Source of the DNA: Patescibacteria group bacterium
Lineage (GTDB): Bacteria; Patescibacteriota; Minisyncoccia; JACQLN01
DNA: 64,000 nucleotides
Direction: 5' to 3'
Assembly: GCA_038065095.1 (NCBI GenBank)
Contig: JBBTRR010000001.1
Span: 29,652-93,651 of the forward strand
Shown: piece by piece, positions 3,656-64,000 of the stretch
Numbering within the stretch: the first letter of the stretch is position 1
How the letters are laid out: every line of letters begins with the position of its first letter
The notes under the pieces: generated by a model
The model's database searches: none
What the model was told of the DNA's origin: nothing
Seen by the model: only the letters and a program-made list of their open reading frames with translations
Translations under genes and position numbers: made by a program

Positions 3656-4474
3656 TTGATTTGTTATCCTCTTTACATGAATAAAATAGTTTTTGATGTA
3701 GAAACTCAAAAGGAACTGGCCGAAGTTGGTGGTTTTAGAAATGTTCATTTGTTGGGTATTTCTGTGGTTGGTGTTTACACTTATGCCGACGATACCTACA
3801 AAGCCTACGAAGAAAAAGAACTTCCCGAACTAGAAAAAGTAATGGCAGATGCCAGCTTAATAATTGGTTTTAATACCAAACATTTCGATAACCAAGTTAT
3901 ACAACCTTATTTTAAAAACTTTACCATAGCCGAAGCACCCACATTAGATTTAATGGAAAAACTGGAAGCGGTTTTGGGTTACAGGCCAGGCTTGGGAGCA
4001 CTTGCTAGTGCAACGTTGGGTGAACAGAAATCTGGGCATGGTTTAGAAGCTTTACAGTGGTACAAGGAAGGCAAGATAGATCAAATTAAAAAATATTGTT
4101 TGCAAGATGTTAAGTTAACTAAAGAAGTTTACGAATATGGTTTAAACCATGGTTCGGTGCTTTTTGAATCGCGTGTAAGTGGATTGCAAACTGTAGTGGC
4201 TAATTGGTTTAATGATAAAGAAAAAAAAGATATTCAAGCAGTTTTAGCTGACGCTTTTAAAAATAAAAAATTGGTAGAAATTGATTATGTTTCTATGAAA
4301 TCGGAAGATGGCGAAGAAGCTCGCAAGAAAAGAAACATAGAAATTTATTCTATAAACAAAGATACTGTAGAAGCTTATTGCCATACTCGCAAGGATAAGC
4401 GCTATTTTAAAGTTCATAGAATTTTAGATGCTAAGGTTATAGACGAAGAGCATAAAATTCCTAGTCTTTTTTAA
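3656..4474 (+). CDS. DEDD-type 3'-5' exonuclease (RNase H-like superfamily)
   Basis: Exo motifs FDVET, FN..FD and YCLQD (Y-x3-D). Confidence 0.5.
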   Translation: MICYPLYMNKIVFDVETQKELAEVGGFRNVHLLGISVVGVYTYADDTYKAYEEKELPELEKVMADASLIIGFNTKHFDNQVIQPYFKNFTIAEAPTLDLMEKLEAVLGYRPGLGALASATLGEQKSGHGLEALQWYKEGKIDQIKKYCLQDVKLTKEVYEYGLNHGSVLFESRVSGLQTVVANWFNDKEKKDIQAVLADAFKNKKLVEIDYVSMKSEDGEEARKKRNIEIYSINKDTVEAYCHTRKDKRYFKVHRILDAKVIDEEHKIPSLF

Positions 4475-6130: not shown

Positions 6131-6760
6131 ATGTCCGAATTAGTTTTAGGTATAGATGAAGCCGGTAAGGGCTGTGTCATTGGTCCGCTGTTTTTAGGTG
6201 GGTTTTTAATTTCGGAAGAAGATTATTTAATAGATAAACTTAATAGTTTGGGTATTACCGACTCTAAATTGCTTGTGGCTAAAAAGCGTGAAAGTATCGC
6301 TAAAGAAATTAAAAAAATAGCCCACGGTTATAAAGTTATAAAAATTAGCCCTGCCGATATAGATAAATATTCTATAAATAATTTAGAAATTAAACATTCG
6401 GCTAATTTAATTAATCATTTTTCACCTCATCGAACATATTTGGACGCACCAGTTTCTGGTGCGGGTATTAAAAAATACTGTAATTCTATTAACCTGTTTT
6501 GCTTAAACAAGAACCATAAAATTATAGGTGCTAATAAAATGGATAGCCATAATCTTGCGGTGGCGGCCGCGTCTATTCTGGCTAAGTCGGAACGAGAAAA
6601 ATATGTTAAAATTCTAAAAAAGACTTATGGAGATTTTGGTTCGGGTTATCCATCGGATCCTAAAACTATAAGATGGTTGGCTAATTGGAAAAAAACCAAA
6701 GGTGAATGGCCACCAATTGTGCGCAGGAAATGGTCTACAATATCAAATATAAAAGATTAA
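6131..6760 (+). CDS. rnhB: ribonuclease HII
   Basis: LGIDEAGKGCVIGPLFLGG N-terminal catalytic motif. Size 209 aa. Confidence 0.85.
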   Translation: MSELVLGIDEAGKGCVIGPLFLGGFLISEEDYLIDKLNSLGITDSKLLVAKKRESIAKEIKKIAHGYKVIKISPADIDKYSINNLEIKHSANLINHFSPHRTYLDAPVSGAGIKKYCNSINLFCLNKNHKIIGANKMDSHNLAVAAASILAKSEREKYVKILKKTYGDFGSGYPSDPKTIRWLANWKKTKGEWPPIVRRKWSTISNIKD

Positions 6761-56743: not shown

Positions 56744-58606
56744 ATGATTACTAAAAATCAAAAAGAGGTGTTGAATTTTGTTAAAAGTTATCAAACCAAA
56801 CATGATTTCGCTCCTTCTCTGGAGGAGATTAAGAAAAAATTTAAACTTGCTTCTGTTTCTACCTCTCATTACTACATTAGAAAGCTTCAAGAGGCGGGGC
56901 AACTCCAAAAAGAATTTAATCAACCGCGCGCTGTTTCAACTACTAATAAAAAACAAACAATAGAAATACCAATCGTTGGCGCAATTGCCGCTGGGCAACC
57001 CATTAGGGCAATTGAAGTACAGAATGAAACAATTACTATCACTAAAGACGAAATAAGCAAACAAGGTAAACATTATGCCTTACGTGTTCAGGGTAATAGT
57101 ATGATAGAAGAAGGAATTTTTGACGGTGACATTGTGGTTATCCGTAAACAAGAAGTTGCCGAGAACGGGCAAACAGTGGTTGCAATTATTGATGAGGACG
57201 AAGCAACTCTAAAAAAGTTTTATCGTGAAAATAATAGGATTCGGCTTCAGCCAGCTAATCCAAGATTATTTCCAATTTATCGCGATGAGGTAGAAATTCG
57301 GGGCGTTGTTGTAAAAATTATTCGCAACCTTGAATTGCAGTTAGACAAAGAAAAATCAAAAGATAAATATGTGCGCCGAATAGATTCTTCTTGGGATTAT
57401 CGCGGAGAAAATACTAAAACCTATACACATGGTATTCACATCTATCCCGCAATGTTTATTCCGCAAGTGGCGCGAAGATTATTGGAGACATACAGTCAAG
57501 AGTACGATACAATTTGCGATATTTTTTGCGGTTCTGGCACAGCTTTGGTTGAAAGTAAATTGTTAAATAGGAGTGCCTATGGTATTGATCTAAACCCCTT
57601 GGCCATTTTCCTTGCCAAGGCGAAAACTACACCCATCAATCCTCAAAAATTAACAAGAACATATCTTTCTTTATTTGATAGAATTGGAAAAGTTACAGAT
57701 AGTGAGATTAAAAAACTCGATTTCAAAAATATTGGTTTTTGGTTTAAAGAAAAAGTTATTACTAAACTTTCAAAACTTAAAAAAGCTATCCAAGAAATTA
57801 AGGACGAAATAATTCGCGATTTTTTTATGGTCGCTTTTAGTGAAACAGTGCGCTATGCCTCAAACACAAAGACAGGCGAGTTTAAATTGGTAAGAATTAA
57901 GAGTGAAAAATTAGATAAACATGATCCCGATGTATTTGGAATTTTTCGAAAAAGGGCCGAGTCAAATATTGCAAAAATGGGTGAATTTTATAAAGATGCA
58001 AAAAAAGATGCTTGGACAAAAATAATTTACGGTGACTCGTCTAAAGATAATGGTATAAAACTAGCCTCTGTAGATTGCATAATTACCTCTCCGCCTTATG
58101 GAGATAGTCGAACAACGGTAGCTTACGGCCAGTTTTCGCGTCTTTCAGCCCAATGGGCCGATATTTTTGACAATCCGAATGATGCTTCTAGCATAGATAA
58201 CGAACTACTGGGCGGTAGAGCCTCAAAAACACTATCACATTCTTTGTCTTCGGATTATCTTAACGATTCATTAGACAATATTGCTAAAAAAGACGAAACG
58301 CGTGCCAAAGATGTTTTAAGTTTTTTTATTGGATTGAATGAGTGTTTAAAGCAAGCTCATAAAATATTAAAACCAAAAAAATATTTCTGTATTGTTATTG
58401 GTAATAGGTTAGTTAAACAAGTTCGTATCCCAACCGATTTTATAATCGCTGAGCTAGGAGAAAAAATCGGTTTTACTTGTGAGGATATTTTTGTTCGTAA
58501 TATTCCAGGCAAAAGAATGCCCATCAAAAACTCGCCTACAAACATTGTTGGAATACTTGAAGAAACGATGAACAAAGAAAGTATTGTTGTTTTAAGAAAA
58601 AACTAA
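56744..58606 (+). CDS. LexA (wHTH + S24 peptidase) fused to alpha-class DNA methyltransferase (FxGxG ... SPPY; N4C/N6A type)
   Basis: QKEVLNFV, DFAPSLEEIKKKF, cleavage site IAAGQP, RVQGNSM, ATLKKF, RLQPAN. Then DIFCGSGTALVE (motif I) and IITSPPYGDSRT (motif IV). Confidence 0.8.
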   Translation: MITKNQKEVLNFVKSYQTKHDFAPSLEEIKKKFKLASVSTSHYYIRKLQEAGQLQKEFNQPRAVSTTNKKQTIEIPIVGAIAAGQPIRAIEVQNETITITKDEISKQGKHYALRVQGNSMIEEGIFDGDIVVIRKQEVAENGQTVVAIIDEDEATLKKFYRENNRIRLQPANPRLFPIYRDEVEIRGVVVKIIRNLELQLDKEKSKDKYVRRIDSSWDYRGENTKTYTHGIHIYPAMFIPQVARRLLETYSQEYDTICDIFCGSGTALVESKLLNRSAYGIDLNPLAIFLAKAKTTPINPQKLTRTYLSLFDRIGKVTDSEIKKLDFKNIGFWFKEKVITKLSKLKKAIQEIKDEIIRDFFMVAFSETVRYASNTKTGEFKLVRIKSEKLDKHDPDVFGIFRKRAESNIAKMGEFYKDAKKDAWTKIIYGDSSKDNGIKLASVDCIITSPPYGDSRTTVAYGQFSRLSAQWADIFDNPNDASSIDNELLGGRASKTLSHSLSSDYLNDSLDNIAKKDETRAKDVLSFFIGLNECLKQAHKILKPKKYFCIVIGNRLVKQVRIPTDFIIAELGEKIGFTCEDIFVRNIPGKRMPIKNSPTNIVGILEETMNKESIVVLRKN

Positions 58607-59304
58607 AGGATTTTCTTATGAATCTTAAACAAAAGCGGTAAAAATTTTTCAGTCAGACGAAACGCAGAACCATGGTCGTGTGGTTGTCCTGCTTTTATTC
58701 CACTATGATAGACACCAAGACGAATATCGTATTTTGAATGGGCAAGAAATTTAGTCGGATCAATTTCTTTAAGGATATATGCGTCTTTGTAGTGAAAATA
58801 CTCGTGTCCGCTTTTATTTTTTGTTTCGGCTCGAACTAATATCAAGCCATTTCCTATTTTTTCTATCGCTTTCTGTTTCAAAAATGCCAGACTGTAATAT
58901 CCTAGAAGTTTTCCTTTTTTAAGAATAAGTAATTTTCCTTGCCCCTCATCAATAGTAGCTTGAAAACCCATACCATTTATTTTACCATCACTAATTGTTT
59001 GATGAAGAATTTTAATTTTAGGAAATTCTGAATCGGGATAACCAAAACGCTTTCTAATTTCAGAATTTGTGATACCTTCGGGGCTTTTAGTGAATAATGT
59101 CATCATGGAAATAGTATTGATTCTTTGAGACTTTAACTCCATTACACCGAAATCAGGTAGTGCAATATTATTTTCTGTAATTCCGAGATAATCCTCAAGA
59201 GTTTTTCCGATTCCAGTATTATGTTTTCGGTTTGATTTAATCCACCCCTTTTCTGAGAGTTCTTTTAAACCTTTCTTGATTTGAGTAAGTGTTCGTTTTT
59301 GCAT
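58603..59304 (-). CDS. putative Type II restriction endonuclease (MvaI/BcnI-like family, tentative)
   Basis: NTGIGKTLEDYLGI..N....PDFGVMELKS N-terminal pattern. 234 aa. Convergent 4-nt overlap with the MTase gene. The ORF-track N-terminal extension (to 59424) translates the tRNA and is rejected. Confidence 0.5.
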   Translation of the reverse strand: MQKRTLTQIKKGLKELSEKGWIKSNRKHNTGIGKTLEDYLGITENNIALPDFGVMELKSQRINTISMMTLFTKSPEGITNSEIRKRFGYPDSEFPKIKILHQTISDGKINGMGFQATIDEGQGKLLILKKGKLLGYYSLAFLKQKAIEKIGNGLILVRAETKNKSGHEYFHYKDAYILKEIDPTKFLAHSKYDIRLGVYHSGIKAGQPHDHGSAFRLTEKFLPLLFKIHKKIL

Positions 59305-59309
59305 CTTAT

Positions 59310-59394
59310 TGGTGGGCGAGGAGGGACTTGAACCCTCAAGCCTTTCGGCACACGATTTTGAGTCGTGCATGTTTGCCAATTTCATCACTCGCCC
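59310..59394 (-). tRNA. tRNA-Leu (anticodon CAA), long variable arm, encoded CCA
   Basis: Reverse complement reads GGGCGAGTGATGAAATTGGCAAACATGCACGACTCAAAATCGTGTGCCGAAAGGCTTGAGGGTTCAAGTCCCTCCTCGCCCACCA, with acceptor GGGCGAG/CTCGCCC and T-arm GAGGG-TTCAAGT-CCCTC. Confidence 0.75.
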
Positions 59395-59489
59395 AATATT
59401 TAGGTATTTTCTAGTAAAAAGCATTCATTGTCAATGCGGATTCCTTAAGGTAAAATGAATAGTATCTAATTAAGTAACTAAGTAATTTT

Positions 59490-61532: not shown

Positions 61533-62366
61533 ATGGCTAAAAGCCCGGTCGGTAGTATGTCGGACTGGTCCGGCGTGCTCAAAGATTTTTTCCGTCAGGT
61601 TGACGATGGCAGTATCACGCTGGAGATGGTGAAGGCCTTCGTCGAACATCGGGTTGTGTCTGCTCTCGAAACTCTGCTGGAGACCACAAAAAAGAAACTC
61701 CAGAAGTTTTTCCGTGTAGACCTTGAACCCATGCCTGCTGAATTCACCGAAGAGAACTTGGCCAAGTGGGCCGAGTTCAACTTGAAGCCTGTCTATCTGC
61801 CGATGGAAGAAATCGGTGAAGACCGCAAACTGAAAAATTGGACCAAGCCCGAAAAATGGTTTTATCAGAAAATCGGAGAAGGCAAAGTTAACGCGGACAG
61901 TGCCAAGCTTCACCAAGGCTGGTATCTGGCCGATTTCACAGTCGGCACAGATTACACCGACGGCACGCAGGTGTTTCCGAACGACCCTCTCAATCCAATC
62001 ATCAAAAGATTGCGCGAAGAAGGGAAAATCGGAAAGTACGATAATACTCCGCTCGGTTCTCGCTTTGCCATTACCCACGACGAATGGCAGACAGTAGTTT
62101 GTCCTGCTGTGGCCGAATCACTTGGTTTCAAACCTACACAGGTTCGCTTGGAGCGATCCATTGAATTTAACGCGATCGGGAATATCTACGATCCCAATCG
62201 TGGCAGGTTCAATATGTGGGAGTGGTTCAGTGATAAATTTGAGGACTCCTACCAGCTTTGCAGTGGTCGCCGCGGGAGCGGTGGTCTGGCCCACGTCTTC
62301 TACAGTTGGTCTAGTCATCGCCTCGTCGACATAGCTGGTCGTCCTCTGGTGAGTTTCGTGAGTTAG
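61533..62366 (+). CDS. DGR target (variable) protein, C-terminal VR
   Basis: GC-rich ORF with GCAGGAGAAACTGGCT-ATG RBS. Its C-terminal ~40 codons align to the downstream TR, with differences concentrated at TR adenines. Confidence 0.65.
   Translation: MAKSPVGSMSDWSGVLKDFFRQVDDGSITLEMVKAFVEHRVVSALETLLETTKKKLQKFFRVDLEPMPAEFTEENLAKWAEFNLKPVYLPMEEIGEDRKLKNWTKPEKWFYQKIGEGKVNADSAKLHQGWYLADFTVGTDYTDGTQVFPNDPLNPIIKRLREEGKIGKYDNTPLGSRFAITHDEWQTVVCPAVAESLGFKPTQVRLERSIEFNAIGNIYDPNRGRFNMWEWFSDKFEDSYQLCSGRRGSGGLAHVFYSWSSHRLVDIAGRPLVSFVS
62235..62352 (+). other. DGR variable region (VR)
   Basis: Aligns to TR 62661-62778 with a constant offset of 426 nt. The 3' homology block CGTCCTCTGGT(G)AGTTTC is identical (IMH-like). 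Confidence 0.6.
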
Positions 62367-62384: not shown

Positions 62385-62412
62385 TTTGGCTCTTGGGATT
62401 TTCCCCCAACGC
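62385..62412 (+). other. GC-rich hairpin downstream of VR
   Basis: TTCCCCCAAC-GCAA-GTTGGGGGAT (8-bp GC stem, 4-nt loop) ~35 nt past the VR end, followed by a T-run. Confidence 0.6.
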
Positions 62413-62660
62413 AAGTTGGGGGATTTTTTTATTTTCACAAACTTGATAGAATTTTTCTTGAGTAAGCTAATGAAGAATAGATCAAGGTTTATTCTCGCAT
62501 TTACTCTCCTGTTTAAAACAGGAAATAACGAAACTCCTTGCTTTGGGCTAGATCGGGTGTCCTAAATTTGTGGGATTGCCGAGTAAAAAACTATCCGTGG
62601 GATGCGGATTTCAGAAAATATAGATTTATATTTTCGGTGATTATAGACGGCTTAAAGCAA

Positions 62661-62778
62661 AAATTCGAGGATTCCAACCAGCTTTACGGCGGTAACCGCG
62701 ATAACGATGGCTTGGCCAACGTCAACTACAACTGGTCTAGCAATCGCAACGACAATATAGCTGGCCGTCCTCTGGTAG
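62661..62778 (+). repeat. DGR template repeat (TR)
   Basis: Adenine-rich (many AAC codons in the VR frame). Homologous to the VR. Intergenic. Followed by hairpin AAGAGCACCT-TATTTTTT-AGGTGCTCTT at 62790-62818. Confidence 0.6.
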
Positions 62779-62825: not shown

Positions 62826-63143
62826 TTAGTTTGATCTTATCCAGCCACCTAACATTCTGCCTATTTCCAAAACTTTTTCTTCAGCTATTAAATATTTTTT
62901 TATATTGATTGATTTGGTATCGTGAGCAAGGCGGACAAGATATTTTAACAAGTCAGTTTTATCGCTAGCCTTTCTTAAAGTTTCATCTTTTTGATGTTTG
63001 GGTTGGTAACTTGCTGAAAGTATTAATTCTAAAACCTCTAAAATAGTATTTTCAATTTTATTTCCCAGAGTAAAACGTTCCAGCTTTGGAAATGTTTTTA
63101 AACACTCGTGAAATAATTTATATAACTCACAAATCTTATGCAC
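62826..63143 (-). CDS. avd: Avd-like four-helix-bundle accessory protein (GTG start)
   Basis: FPKLERFTLGNKIENTILEVLELILSAS ... LKYLVRLAHD ... EIGRMLGGWI matches the four-helix-bundle/Avd family. Divergent from the RT. Confidence 0.65.
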   Translation of the reverse strand: MHKICELYKLFHECLKTFPKLERFTLGNKIENTILEVLELILSASYQPKHQKDETLRKASDKTDLLKYLVRLAHDTKSINIKKYLIAEEKVLEIGRMLGGWIRSN

Positions 63144-63162
63144 AATTGGTATTTCAACTCCG

Positions 63163-64000
63163 TTGGGGGGGGGCTTTAATGGTAAAGTTTTCCATAATAT
63201 TTTTGAAAAGATTATTGGCTTAGAAAACTTATTTTTAGCTTGGCGCGAATTTAAGCGTGGTAAGAAAAAGCGTTTAGATGTTCAAGAATTTGAGTTTAAC
63301 CTAGAAGATAATTTGTTTCAATTGCGTAACGAACTAAAGAATAAAATCTACCAACACAATAAATACATTCCTTTTTATGTAACCGACCCAAAGTTAAGAC
63401 ATATACATAAGGCTACAGTTCGGGATAGAGTTTTACATCAAGCCGTGTTTAGAGTTCTTTACCCAATCTTTGATAAAAATTTTATATTTGATTCTTATTC
63501 TTGCCGAATAAACAAAGGCACGCATAGAGCAATTACCAGATTAGAAAGTTTTTGCCATAAATTAAGCCAAAACAACAGTAAAACTATTTTCGCCTTAAAG
63601 TGTGATATTAAAAAGTTCTTTGATTCTATAGATCAAAATATTCTAGCTAGTTTGATACAAGCAAAAGTTAAAGACGATAATGCTACGTGGCTTGTAGACG
63701 TGATTATCAAAAGCTTCCCCAAAGGTTTACCCTTGGGCAATGTAACCAGTCAATTGTTTGCCAATATTTATCTTAACGAACTAGACCAATTTATTAAACA
63801 TAAATTAAAAGAAAAGTACTACATTCGTTATTGTGATGATTTTATTATTTTGGGTGAGAACCTGAACGTCTTGCAGAGATTATCAAAAAAGATAGATGAG
63901 TTTTTGGGAAAGAGTTTAAAGCTATCCTTGCATCCCAATAAAATTATCATGCGTAAATATATACAGGGCATAGATTTTCTGGGTTATGTGATTTTGCCGA
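63163..64000 (+). CDS. DGR-type reverse transcriptase, 3'-truncated by window edge (start codon uncertain)
   Basis: LPLGNVTSQLFANIYLNELD (DGR hallmark IGxxxSQ in place of the group II QGxxSP). YIRYCDDFIILG (YxDD). RT motifs 1-5 in order. Confidence 0.8.
   Translation, partial: MGGGFNGKVFHNIFEKIIGLENLFLAWREFKRGKKKRLDVQEFEFNLEDNLFQLRNELKNKIYQHNKYIPFYVTDPKLRHIHKATVRDRVLHQAVFRVLYPIFDKNFIFDSYSCRINKGTHRAITRLESFCHKLSQNNSKTIFALKCDIKKFFDSIDQNILASLIQAKVKDDNATWLVDVIIKSFPKGLPLGNVTSQLFANIYLNELDQFIKHKLKEKYYIRYCDDFIILGENLNVLQRLSKKIDEFLGKSLKLSLHPNKIIMRKYIQGIDFLGYVILP
63165..63173 (+). repeat. G9 homopolymeric tract at the RT 5' end
   Basis: CCGTTGGGGGGGGGCTTT. Separates an out-of-frame ATG (63138) from the RT reading frame. 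Confidence 0.8.

Follow-up and report, generated by a model that had tools for sequence, protein, structure and literature searches.

We analyzed a stretch of 64,000 nucleotides (nt), hereafter the window, from a Patescibacteria group bacterium (contig JBBTRR010000001.1), near the end of which lies a diversity-generating retroelement (DGR) whose reverse transcriptase (RT) gene carries a run of nine guanines (G9) at its 5′ end. The gene order is target gene, template repeat (TR), avd (reverse) and RT, and the parts of the locus, including its open reading frames (ORFs), are as follows.

61533-62366: target gene, with the variable repeat (VR) at its 3′ end
62235-62350, plus strand: VR, found by a repeat search of the window and paired with the TR
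62661-62776, plus strand: TR, found by the repeat search (family D1)
62826-63143, minus strand: avd accessory gene of 105 amino acids (aa), divergent from the RT, with a GTG start at 63143-63141
63121-63126, plus strand: putative −10-like hexamer TATAAC, 11 nt 5′ of the leader ATG
63138-63179, plus strand: leader ORF in the G9 state, with ATG, 12 sense codons and TAA, encoding MHNWYFNSVGGGL and a stop
63163-64000, plus strand: DGR RT ORF counted from TTG 63163, which leaves the window at its end
63165-63173, plus strand: G9 homopolymer, the candidate hypermutable switch element, lying between T and C and read as C9 on the avd strand
63177-63179, plus strand: hidden stop TAA, directly 3′ of the tract, in the frame one nucleotide behind the RT

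The RT, whose full length of 321 aa is seen in an overlapping contig (L002), matches Pfam RVT_1 at 8e-22, while its scores against the group II, retron and DRT models stay under their cutoffs. Its conserved core starts at about 63199 (IFEKIIGLENLFLAW), and the sequence LPLGNVTSQLF fits what we take to be the [LIV]GxxxSQ signature of DGR RTs. It is a DGR-type RT, and its homologs adjoin TR/VR pairs in 86 of the 86 loci in which such a pair could be looked for. The product of avd is an Avd protein, which scores 88.2 bits against the NCBIfam model NF033474 (DivGenRetAVD, cutoff 80) and is also matched by Pfam bAvd.

A first-pass annotation of the window had proposed that the G run is a slipped-strand switch at the start of the RT gene, and on re-reading the sequence we found G9 at 63165-63173 as described. 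It is the only G/C homopolymer of at least six residues in the 64 kb of the window (GC content 36%), for which the chance expectation of G/C runs of at least nine is 0.04 (independent bases) to 0.17 (first-order Markov model). The ATG at 63138-63140 does read ATG CAC AAT TGG TAT TTC AAC TCC GTT GGG GGG GGG CTT TAA, with its stop at 63177-63179, and the removal of one G does fuse it in frame to the RT, giving MHNWYFNSVGGGFNGKVFHNIF... The RT frame is open from 63115, following a TAA at 63112-63114, and, as had been stated, contains no ATG before the core; TTG 63163 is the sole canonical start 5′ of the core in this frame and the one chosen by gene callers. The claim that the G9 state would need a non-canonical start was too strong, as TTG is a legitimate bacterial start codon, yet this TTG is not conserved among relatives. 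The overlap reported with the start of avd applies to the leader ATG, which is the complement of avd codon 2 (CAT) and stands beside the GTG, and not to the tract, which lies 22 nt upstream of the avd start.

GTDB genomes and metagenomes supplied 160 RT-homolog loci (52-86% identity), a subset of the more than 580 homologous ones, and all 160 came from Patescibacteria-type organisms. Among them, 153 sequences were analyzable for the tract and 110 were unique tract loci, 107 of these with a leader ATG; 86 were testable for a TR/VR pair. At the same site, G7 or longer was present in 119 of the 153 loci, with G7 in 6, G8 in 7, G9 in 39, G10 in 48, G11 in 14, G12 in 3, G13 in 1 and G14 in 1. In the RT bodies GGG makes up only 18% of the glycine codons, and the 670 kb of these loci contain just 11 other G/C runs of at least seven, vs 110 at the tract site, so the tract is conserved at the nucleotide level. 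Its supposed tie to avd turned out to be weaker than first described, as the tract is also found in DGRs in which avd does not adjoin the RT: eight tract loci have the TR directly upstream instead of a divergent avd and have kept the leader ATG. The cassette formed by the leader ATG, the tract and the stop behind it therefore belongs to the RT and not to avd. Consistently, the distance from tract to TR is 65-86 nt without avd and 340-445 nt with it, while the position relative to the RT start is constant. A role of the tract as a promoter or untranslated region (UTR) element of avd was rejected for the family as a whole, as the tract persists where avd is not adjacent; where the two genes are divergent, the tract may still act on avd expression. 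Folding of the 110 loci gave no conserved RNA structure around the tract (median z=+0.35, with no consistent pairing partner), and an Rfam search returned nothing above threshold, only chance hits. A hairpin with a T-rich tail at 63168-63193, in which the tract pairs with a downstream UUUUCC, is present in the window and its closest relatives only.

Of the 110 unique loci, 107 have the leader ATG ahead of the tract, at a distance of 21-57 nt (mode 27), and the RT starts of orthologs, when compared, showed this conserved ATG 5′ of the poly-G and no internal TTG or ATT start. Of 33 relatives where the tract is absent or interrupted, 28 have the ATG in frame with the RT, vs 27 of 110 tract loci (Fisher p=6e-10); the "locked" leaders among these relatives include MRQGNIKLVGGIRR and MNQRRFNFTYSGGK. 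Moreover, the RT frame 5′ of the tract is devoid of ATG, GTG and TTG in 56 of the 110 tract loci, the next start usually lying within the conserved core. TTG 63163 was rejected as a general RT start because it is not conserved: a start like it occurs in 11 of the 55 loci with one G too many, and 33 of these 55 lack any canonical in-frame start. On these comparative grounds, the leader ATG is probably the true RT start in this DGR clade. The fusion that had been predicted for a tract of eight is in fact realized in the closest leader homolog (L009), which has G8 and reads MHQGNFNSIGGGFNGKVFHN in frame. Across the 107 loci, the leader ATG is in frame with the RT (ON) in 23, has one G too many (the +1 state) in 55, the window among them, and one too few in 29, a distribution that is not uniform (chi-square p=3e-4), and the modal tract length is the in-frame length plus one (ON+1) in both frame classes (Fisher p=0.004).

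Features of the host point to the same start codon. In 29 of the 33 long genes of the window there is no Shine-Dalgarno (SD)-like motif, and several have TATAAT 6-8 nt 5′ of the ATG, for example at 6131, 11709, 28279, 31943 and 32841, which suggests that leaderless or near-leaderless mRNAs are widespread in this organism. Since the host rarely uses SD pairing, an internal TTG would be a poor start and a 5′-proximal AUG a likelier one. The TATAAC at 63121-63126, if it were a promoter element, would give a very short or absent 5′ leader. A −10-like hexamer with at least 5/6 matches at the 11-nt spacing is present in only 27 of the 107 homologs, and a consensus promoter scan called no RT promoter on the plus strand, TATAAC included. 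We rejected the G run as the SD sequence of a downstream start, as no in-frame start exists between tract and core, and the ATG at 63179 is in another frame and lacks conservation. That ATG opens a short ORF at 63179-63223 (MVKFSIIFLKRLLA), overlaps the leader stop (TAATG) and lies 5 nt past the G run; the ORF is out of the RT frame and conserved in the closest relatives L008-L010 only.

The stop behind the tract is not there by chance. In the frame with one G too many, a stop within three codons of the tract was found in 89 of the 110 loci, vs 27.6% expected from the RT bodies (p=4e-31), and at the same place in the other alternative frame in only 6 of 110. Where the tract is followed by a hydrophobic residue and then N or K, T is the last base of the first codon in all 51 cases, vs 30% in RT bodies (p=4e-27), so the hidden stop is selected at the nucleotide level and is not a by-product of the protein sequence. 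UAA-U and UAA-A predominate among these stops, and by the standards of E. coli both are contexts of strong termination.

The first-pass annotation had also asked for a comparison of assemblies for length heterogeneity, which we found in the window lineage (G9 vs G10) and in five others. An exact look-up of the Avd protein showed that 13 contigs of metagenomes from Hainich groundwater carry this locus, and six independent Illumina assemblies from different wells and replicates were 100% identical to the window, all with G9. The 90%-identity cluster of the RT holds a 345-aa variant (P0125) from contig L168 (run ERR3654040), which has G10 instead of G9 and is otherwise identical over 4641 nt. The tract is thus the sole varying position in the window lineage, as L168 differs only in tract length. 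Long-read variants with G6 (L001) and G5 (L169) were rejected on account of their 37-42 other indels per contig, nearly all in homopolymers. The tract lengths found among contigs with 0-1 mismatches in 1200 nt of flank are listed below for the six lineages compared.

Window lineage: G9 (six shown, 13 contigs), G10 (L168)
Wildermuthbacteria: G9 in three contigs, G10 in two, G11, G12
Portnoybacteria: G8 in five, G9
Cluster 4: G9, G10, G11 in five, plus one interrupted tract
Cluster 7: G8 in two, G9 in six
Nealsonbacteria: G9 in two, G10

The 90%-identity protein clusters contain matching N-terminal variants, in which the same nucleotides are read in other frames (e.g., NSVGGG vs TPLGGG). The locus has three of the properties expected of a contingency locus, namely a homopolymer of at least about seven residues in the 5′ coding part (G9 stands 27 nt after the leader ATG), a repeat number that is polymorphic between otherwise identical genomes, and a length that toggles between full-length and truncated frames, with ON and OFF alleles within lineages. 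The interrupted tract of cluster 4 (GGGGGGGTGGG, contig L187:1536-1546) has the total length of the G11 allele and stems either from a substitution error in sequencing or from a mutation that would lock the switch OFF. In another locus (L058), a C13-A-C5 run directly 5′ of the G11 tract (about 30 nt upstream), beside scaffold N's, is probably an assembly artifact at the homopolymer.

A TR/VR pair was present in all 86 loci with enough upstream sequence, those in an OFF frame included, with about 17 mismatches at TR adenines and about one elsewhere; all 86 testable loci are genuine DGRs. In the window, TR and VR are 77% identical and 17 of the 29 mismatches are at TR adenines, the other 12 being non-A transitions. 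The bias toward adenines is plain, but no other pair among the 86 examined is as degraded. The window VR is identical across all Illumina assemblies of its lineage, with no sign of ongoing diversification. Such diversification was found in Wildermuthbacteria and Portnoybacteria. In the former, the 17 variable upstream positions are all within the VR and 16 coincide with TR adenines, the ON contigs having the most diverged VRs; in the latter, each ON contig has its own VR and two assemblies break at the VR. These two contigs of published metagenome-assembled genomes (L016 and L176) have N runs exactly over the VR, some 820-960 nt upstream of the tract, which are probably due to assembly breakage from VR heterogeneity in an ON (G8) population. 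The VR is invariant in the Nealsonbacteria and window lineages, where only OFF lengths were seen, and also in cluster 4, which is mostly OFF (G11 in five contigs, G9) but includes one ON contig (L181, G10). VR diversification thus agrees with the state predicted from the tract in the few lineages sampled. Non-A mismatches between TR and VR did not differ significantly between ON and OFF loci (p=0.08), and each of the six loci whose TR/VR pairs have decayed has one G too many. The window DGR looks to have been quiescent or switched off for long, although its RT and avd are intact, and its degraded TR/VR pair fits a long OFF period. Between target gene and TR, at 62402-62423, 36 nt past the stop of the target gene, a T run accompanies a hairpin rich in GC (TCCCCCAAC-GCAA-GTTGGGGGA, with a loop of 4 nt), which could be a terminator or a hairpin/cruciform of the sort known downstream of DGR VRs.

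Taking the evidence together, we consider it reasonably probable that the cassette of leader, tract and hidden stop acts as a heritable slipped-strand poly-G contingency switch gating the RT of this clade of patescibacterial DGRs. Three parts at the start of the RT gene would make up such a switch: the poly-G run, most often G9-G10 within a range of G7-G14, the leader ATG some nine codons ahead of it, and the stop that directly follows it. Translation of the RT would begin at the leader ATG, with the length of the tract setting its frame relative to the RT. As slipped-strand mispairing during replication would gain or lose a G far faster than the substitution rate, lineages would flip between ON and OFF. 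In the ON state, full-length RT would be made and mutagenic retrohoming would be possible, whereas in the commonest OFF state, with one G too many, the ribosome would join about 13 aa and then meet the hidden stop. The window would be in this latter state at G9, with G8 or G11 being ON, and its RT would not be made, or only in small amounts through initiation at TTG 63163 or occasional slippage. Switching would be reversible within populations, the level of RT protein would follow the frame, and the benefit might be that costly mutagenesis is limited yet kept available. All the predictions that could be checked without reads came out as expected, which supports the phase variation originally suggested for this locus. 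Nevertheless, several points weigh against a DNA switch. The databases searched contained no ON (G8 or G11) assembly of the window lineage, and TTG 63163 is in frame, so that G9 need not be fully OFF. Assemblies record only the majority tract length, and homopolymers are error-prone; kinship among the loci makes our p-values overstate their independence; and the comparison of tract state with VR diversity covers about six lineages. Finally, the excess of loci with one G too many and the clean, A-only VR/TR mismatches in OFF-frame loci would also fit constitutive low-level recoding.

Under this last explanation, which we regard as unlikely, RNA polymerase or the ribosome would change frame on the G run at a set low frequency, be it by transcriptional slippage, by a +1 shift on GGG codons or by a prfB-like CUU-UAA shift beside an SD-like G run; one G too many would be the normal, attenuated state and DNA length variation a side effect. 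Its appeal is that the +1 state is the commonest (55 of 107), with the modal length at ON+1 in both frame classes, and that a stop just past a slippery run, strongly selected here, is typical of programmed frameshift sites; the A-only TR/VR mismatches have also stayed pristine in OFF-frame loci. Programmed transcriptional slippage would call for an out-of-frame arrangement that orthologs conserve, and the +1 state is present in 51% of the loci, not in all. The frameshift site of release factor 2 (RF2, encoded by prfB) is AGGGGG-UAU-CUU-UGA-C, and the GGGGGG-GGG-CUU-UAA-U of the window shares its geometry: a G-rich run, CUU and a stop, with the main ORF in the +1 frame. However, a prfB-like site, attractive as it is in the window, was rejected, as the CUU-U slip codon and weak stop are not conserved in homologs. 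There the stop is preceded mostly by codons that are not competent for slipping (UAU, UCU, CGU, GCU), and the stops are in the strong contexts UAA-U and UAA-A rather than the weak UGA-C; SD pairing is scarcely used by the host, and no stimulatory RNA structure is conserved (median z=+0.35). Moreover, G/C runs are not known as the usual substrate of bacterial transcriptional slippage. Also against recoding, all three frames occur, even between identical strains, in-frame alleles prevail in some lineages (G8 in 21 contigs of Portnoybacteria, for instance), and decayed TR/VR pairs, found in six loci, are confined to the +1 state. Recoding and the DNA switch could coexist. In a combined form, which we likewise hold to be doubtful, the cassette would have evolved to set the duty cycle of DGR mutagenesis throughout Patescibacteria. 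The prevailing +1 state, instead of being plain OFF, would have been selected as a tightly terminated condition that yields a small, tuned supply of RT through recoding (a +1 ribosomal shift, or one G lost during transcription), and DNA slippage would be a second, heritable gear; if so, two stacked slippage mechanisms would control a targeted hypermutator.

The remaining explanations appear less probable still. The extra G could be a fixed inactivating frameshift in an element that is being lost from this genome, as might be read from the degraded TR/VR pair of the window (12 non-A transitions among 29 mismatches, the worst of 86), from the VR being identical in every Illumina assembly and from the lineage having OFF lengths only (G9, G10). 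We think this improbable, given that the RT ORF is intact past the tract over 321 codons, that avd is intact and above its curated cutoff, that the tract is uninterrupted and still varying between G9 and G10, and that hidden stop and leader ATG are preserved; besides, decay concerns the present state of one lineage and leaves the family-wide cassette unexplained. That the RT is normally made from TTG 63163, the G run merely encoding Gly-Gly-Gly or having some other role, as a promoter or 5′ UTR element of the divergent avd or an element of the DGR template RNA, strikes us as very improbable. The TTG is in frame and picked by gene callers, the tract is 22 nt 5′ of the avd start and, in the window and its closest relatives, it can pair with the downstream UUUUCC in a hairpin; but a comparable start exists in only 11 of the 55 loci in the same state, with 33 having no canonical in-frame start. 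A need at the protein level cannot explain the exclusive use of GGG, since locked relatives use mixed GG codons or lose GG, and the tract keeps its position relative to the RT start rather than to the TR, occurs without a neighboring avd and shows neither a conserved RNA structure nor an Rfam match. We give the least credence of all, next to none, to a sequencing or assembly artifact in which the true tract is G8 and the ATG already in frame. Homopolymers are indeed error-prone, and long-read assemblies give G6 (L001) and G5 (L169), but those contigs have 37-42 homopolymer indels elsewhere, and G9 with 100% identical flanks is seen in no fewer than six independent Illumina assemblies, which cover different wells and replicates; sequencing error can yield neither the frame-dependent length statistics nor the selected hidden stop.

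The regulation of DGRs is largely unknown, and Patescibacteria, also known as the candidate phyla radiation (CPR), carry many of them. If the tract gates the RT, about three quarters of these elements would be genetically OFF in the dominant genotype at any time, and the reading of DGR "activity" in metagenomes would change. A switch of this kind would explain the inconsistent or truncated RT starts given by gene callers, and tract length modulo 3 would offer a simple sequence marker to correlate with VR diversity across samples. It would place a hypermutable switch over a targeted hypermutator and be the first candidate contingency locus in CPR bacteria.

Other features came to light in the sequences analyzed. 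Homopolymers lie in promoter-like spacers in two contigs of related Patescibacteria, in L166 as TTGCCT-aaaatGGGGGGGGtgg-TATAAT, repeated twice in tandem downstream of the RT (4005-4060 and 4133-4190), and in L020 (5350-5395) as TTGACA-acccactgCCCCCCCC-TATAAG. This is the classic layout of promoter-spacer phase variation and hints that simple-repeat switching is wider in CPR bacteria. Elsewhere in the window, the region 56744-59424 includes the gene of a 620-aa protein that fuses a LexA DNA-binding domain and a peptidase S24 domain to an N6/N4 DNA methyltransferase, and this gene adjoins a convergent one for an MvaI/BcnI-type restriction endonuclease. At its 5′ end, the longest endonuclease ORF overlaps a tRNA-Leu(CAA) encoded on the minus strand at 59310-59394, which probably puts the real start of the endonuclease further downstream.

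In its components, the DGR of the window is like that of Bordetella phage BPP-1, the prototype DGR, in having an RT, avd, a target whose VR is C-terminal and a paired TR, although the adenine-specific mismatches typical of such pairs are in the window an adenine bias in a degraded pair; we know of no homopolymer at the start of brt in BPP-1. The order target-TR-avd(reverse)-RT appears, judging from the short description in a large DGR survey, to be the B3 type, the architecture that accounts for 90% of CPR DGRs (Wu et al. 2018, PMC5758913); that survey makes no mention of a homopolymer at the DGR RT. A full-text literature search returned no report linking a homopolymer or phase variation to DGR RTs or to CPR bacteria. 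Phase variation by poly-G is already known; a DGR with a built-in simple-repeat switch would, going by the literature searched, be new.

The closest parallels are found among established contingency loci. Campylobacter jejuni NCTC11168 has 28-29 poly-G/C contingency tracts (PMC4965091, PMC8437040). As in those loci, we found a 5′ intragenic G tract of at least seven residues in which changes of a single G toggle between a full-length and a truncated product; the C. jejuni tracts are typically G8-G13, centered on 9-10, with both ON and OFF alleles among near-identical genomes, as here. Unlike in C. jejuni, a host-adapted pathogen in which surface-structure genes are affected, the gene concerned is a DGR RT in free-living or episymbiotic groundwater Patescibacteria, switching is predicted from sequence, and the cassette has a selected hidden stop that is conserved across many class-level lineages. 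In the pilus clusters of Bifidobacterium breve, an intragenic G tract is an ON/OFF switch driven by replication slippage (PMC9187656), and there, too, a conserved tract (G11/G12) splits or fuses two ORFs and a population of mixed tract lengths is represented by a single length in the reference assembly. The B. breve switch governs pilus genes and was proven by error-corrected sequencing and phenotypes, whereas the one proposed here is predicted from assemblies. Finally, phasevarions are controlled by phase-variable mod methyltransferases (PMC5909438), and the arrangement described here would be similar in that a simple-repeat switch acts on an enzyme that alters the genetic or epigenetic state of the cell, a control at two levels. 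Unlike in phasevarions, where methylation and gene regulation change, the effect here would be the targeted hypermutation of one VR.

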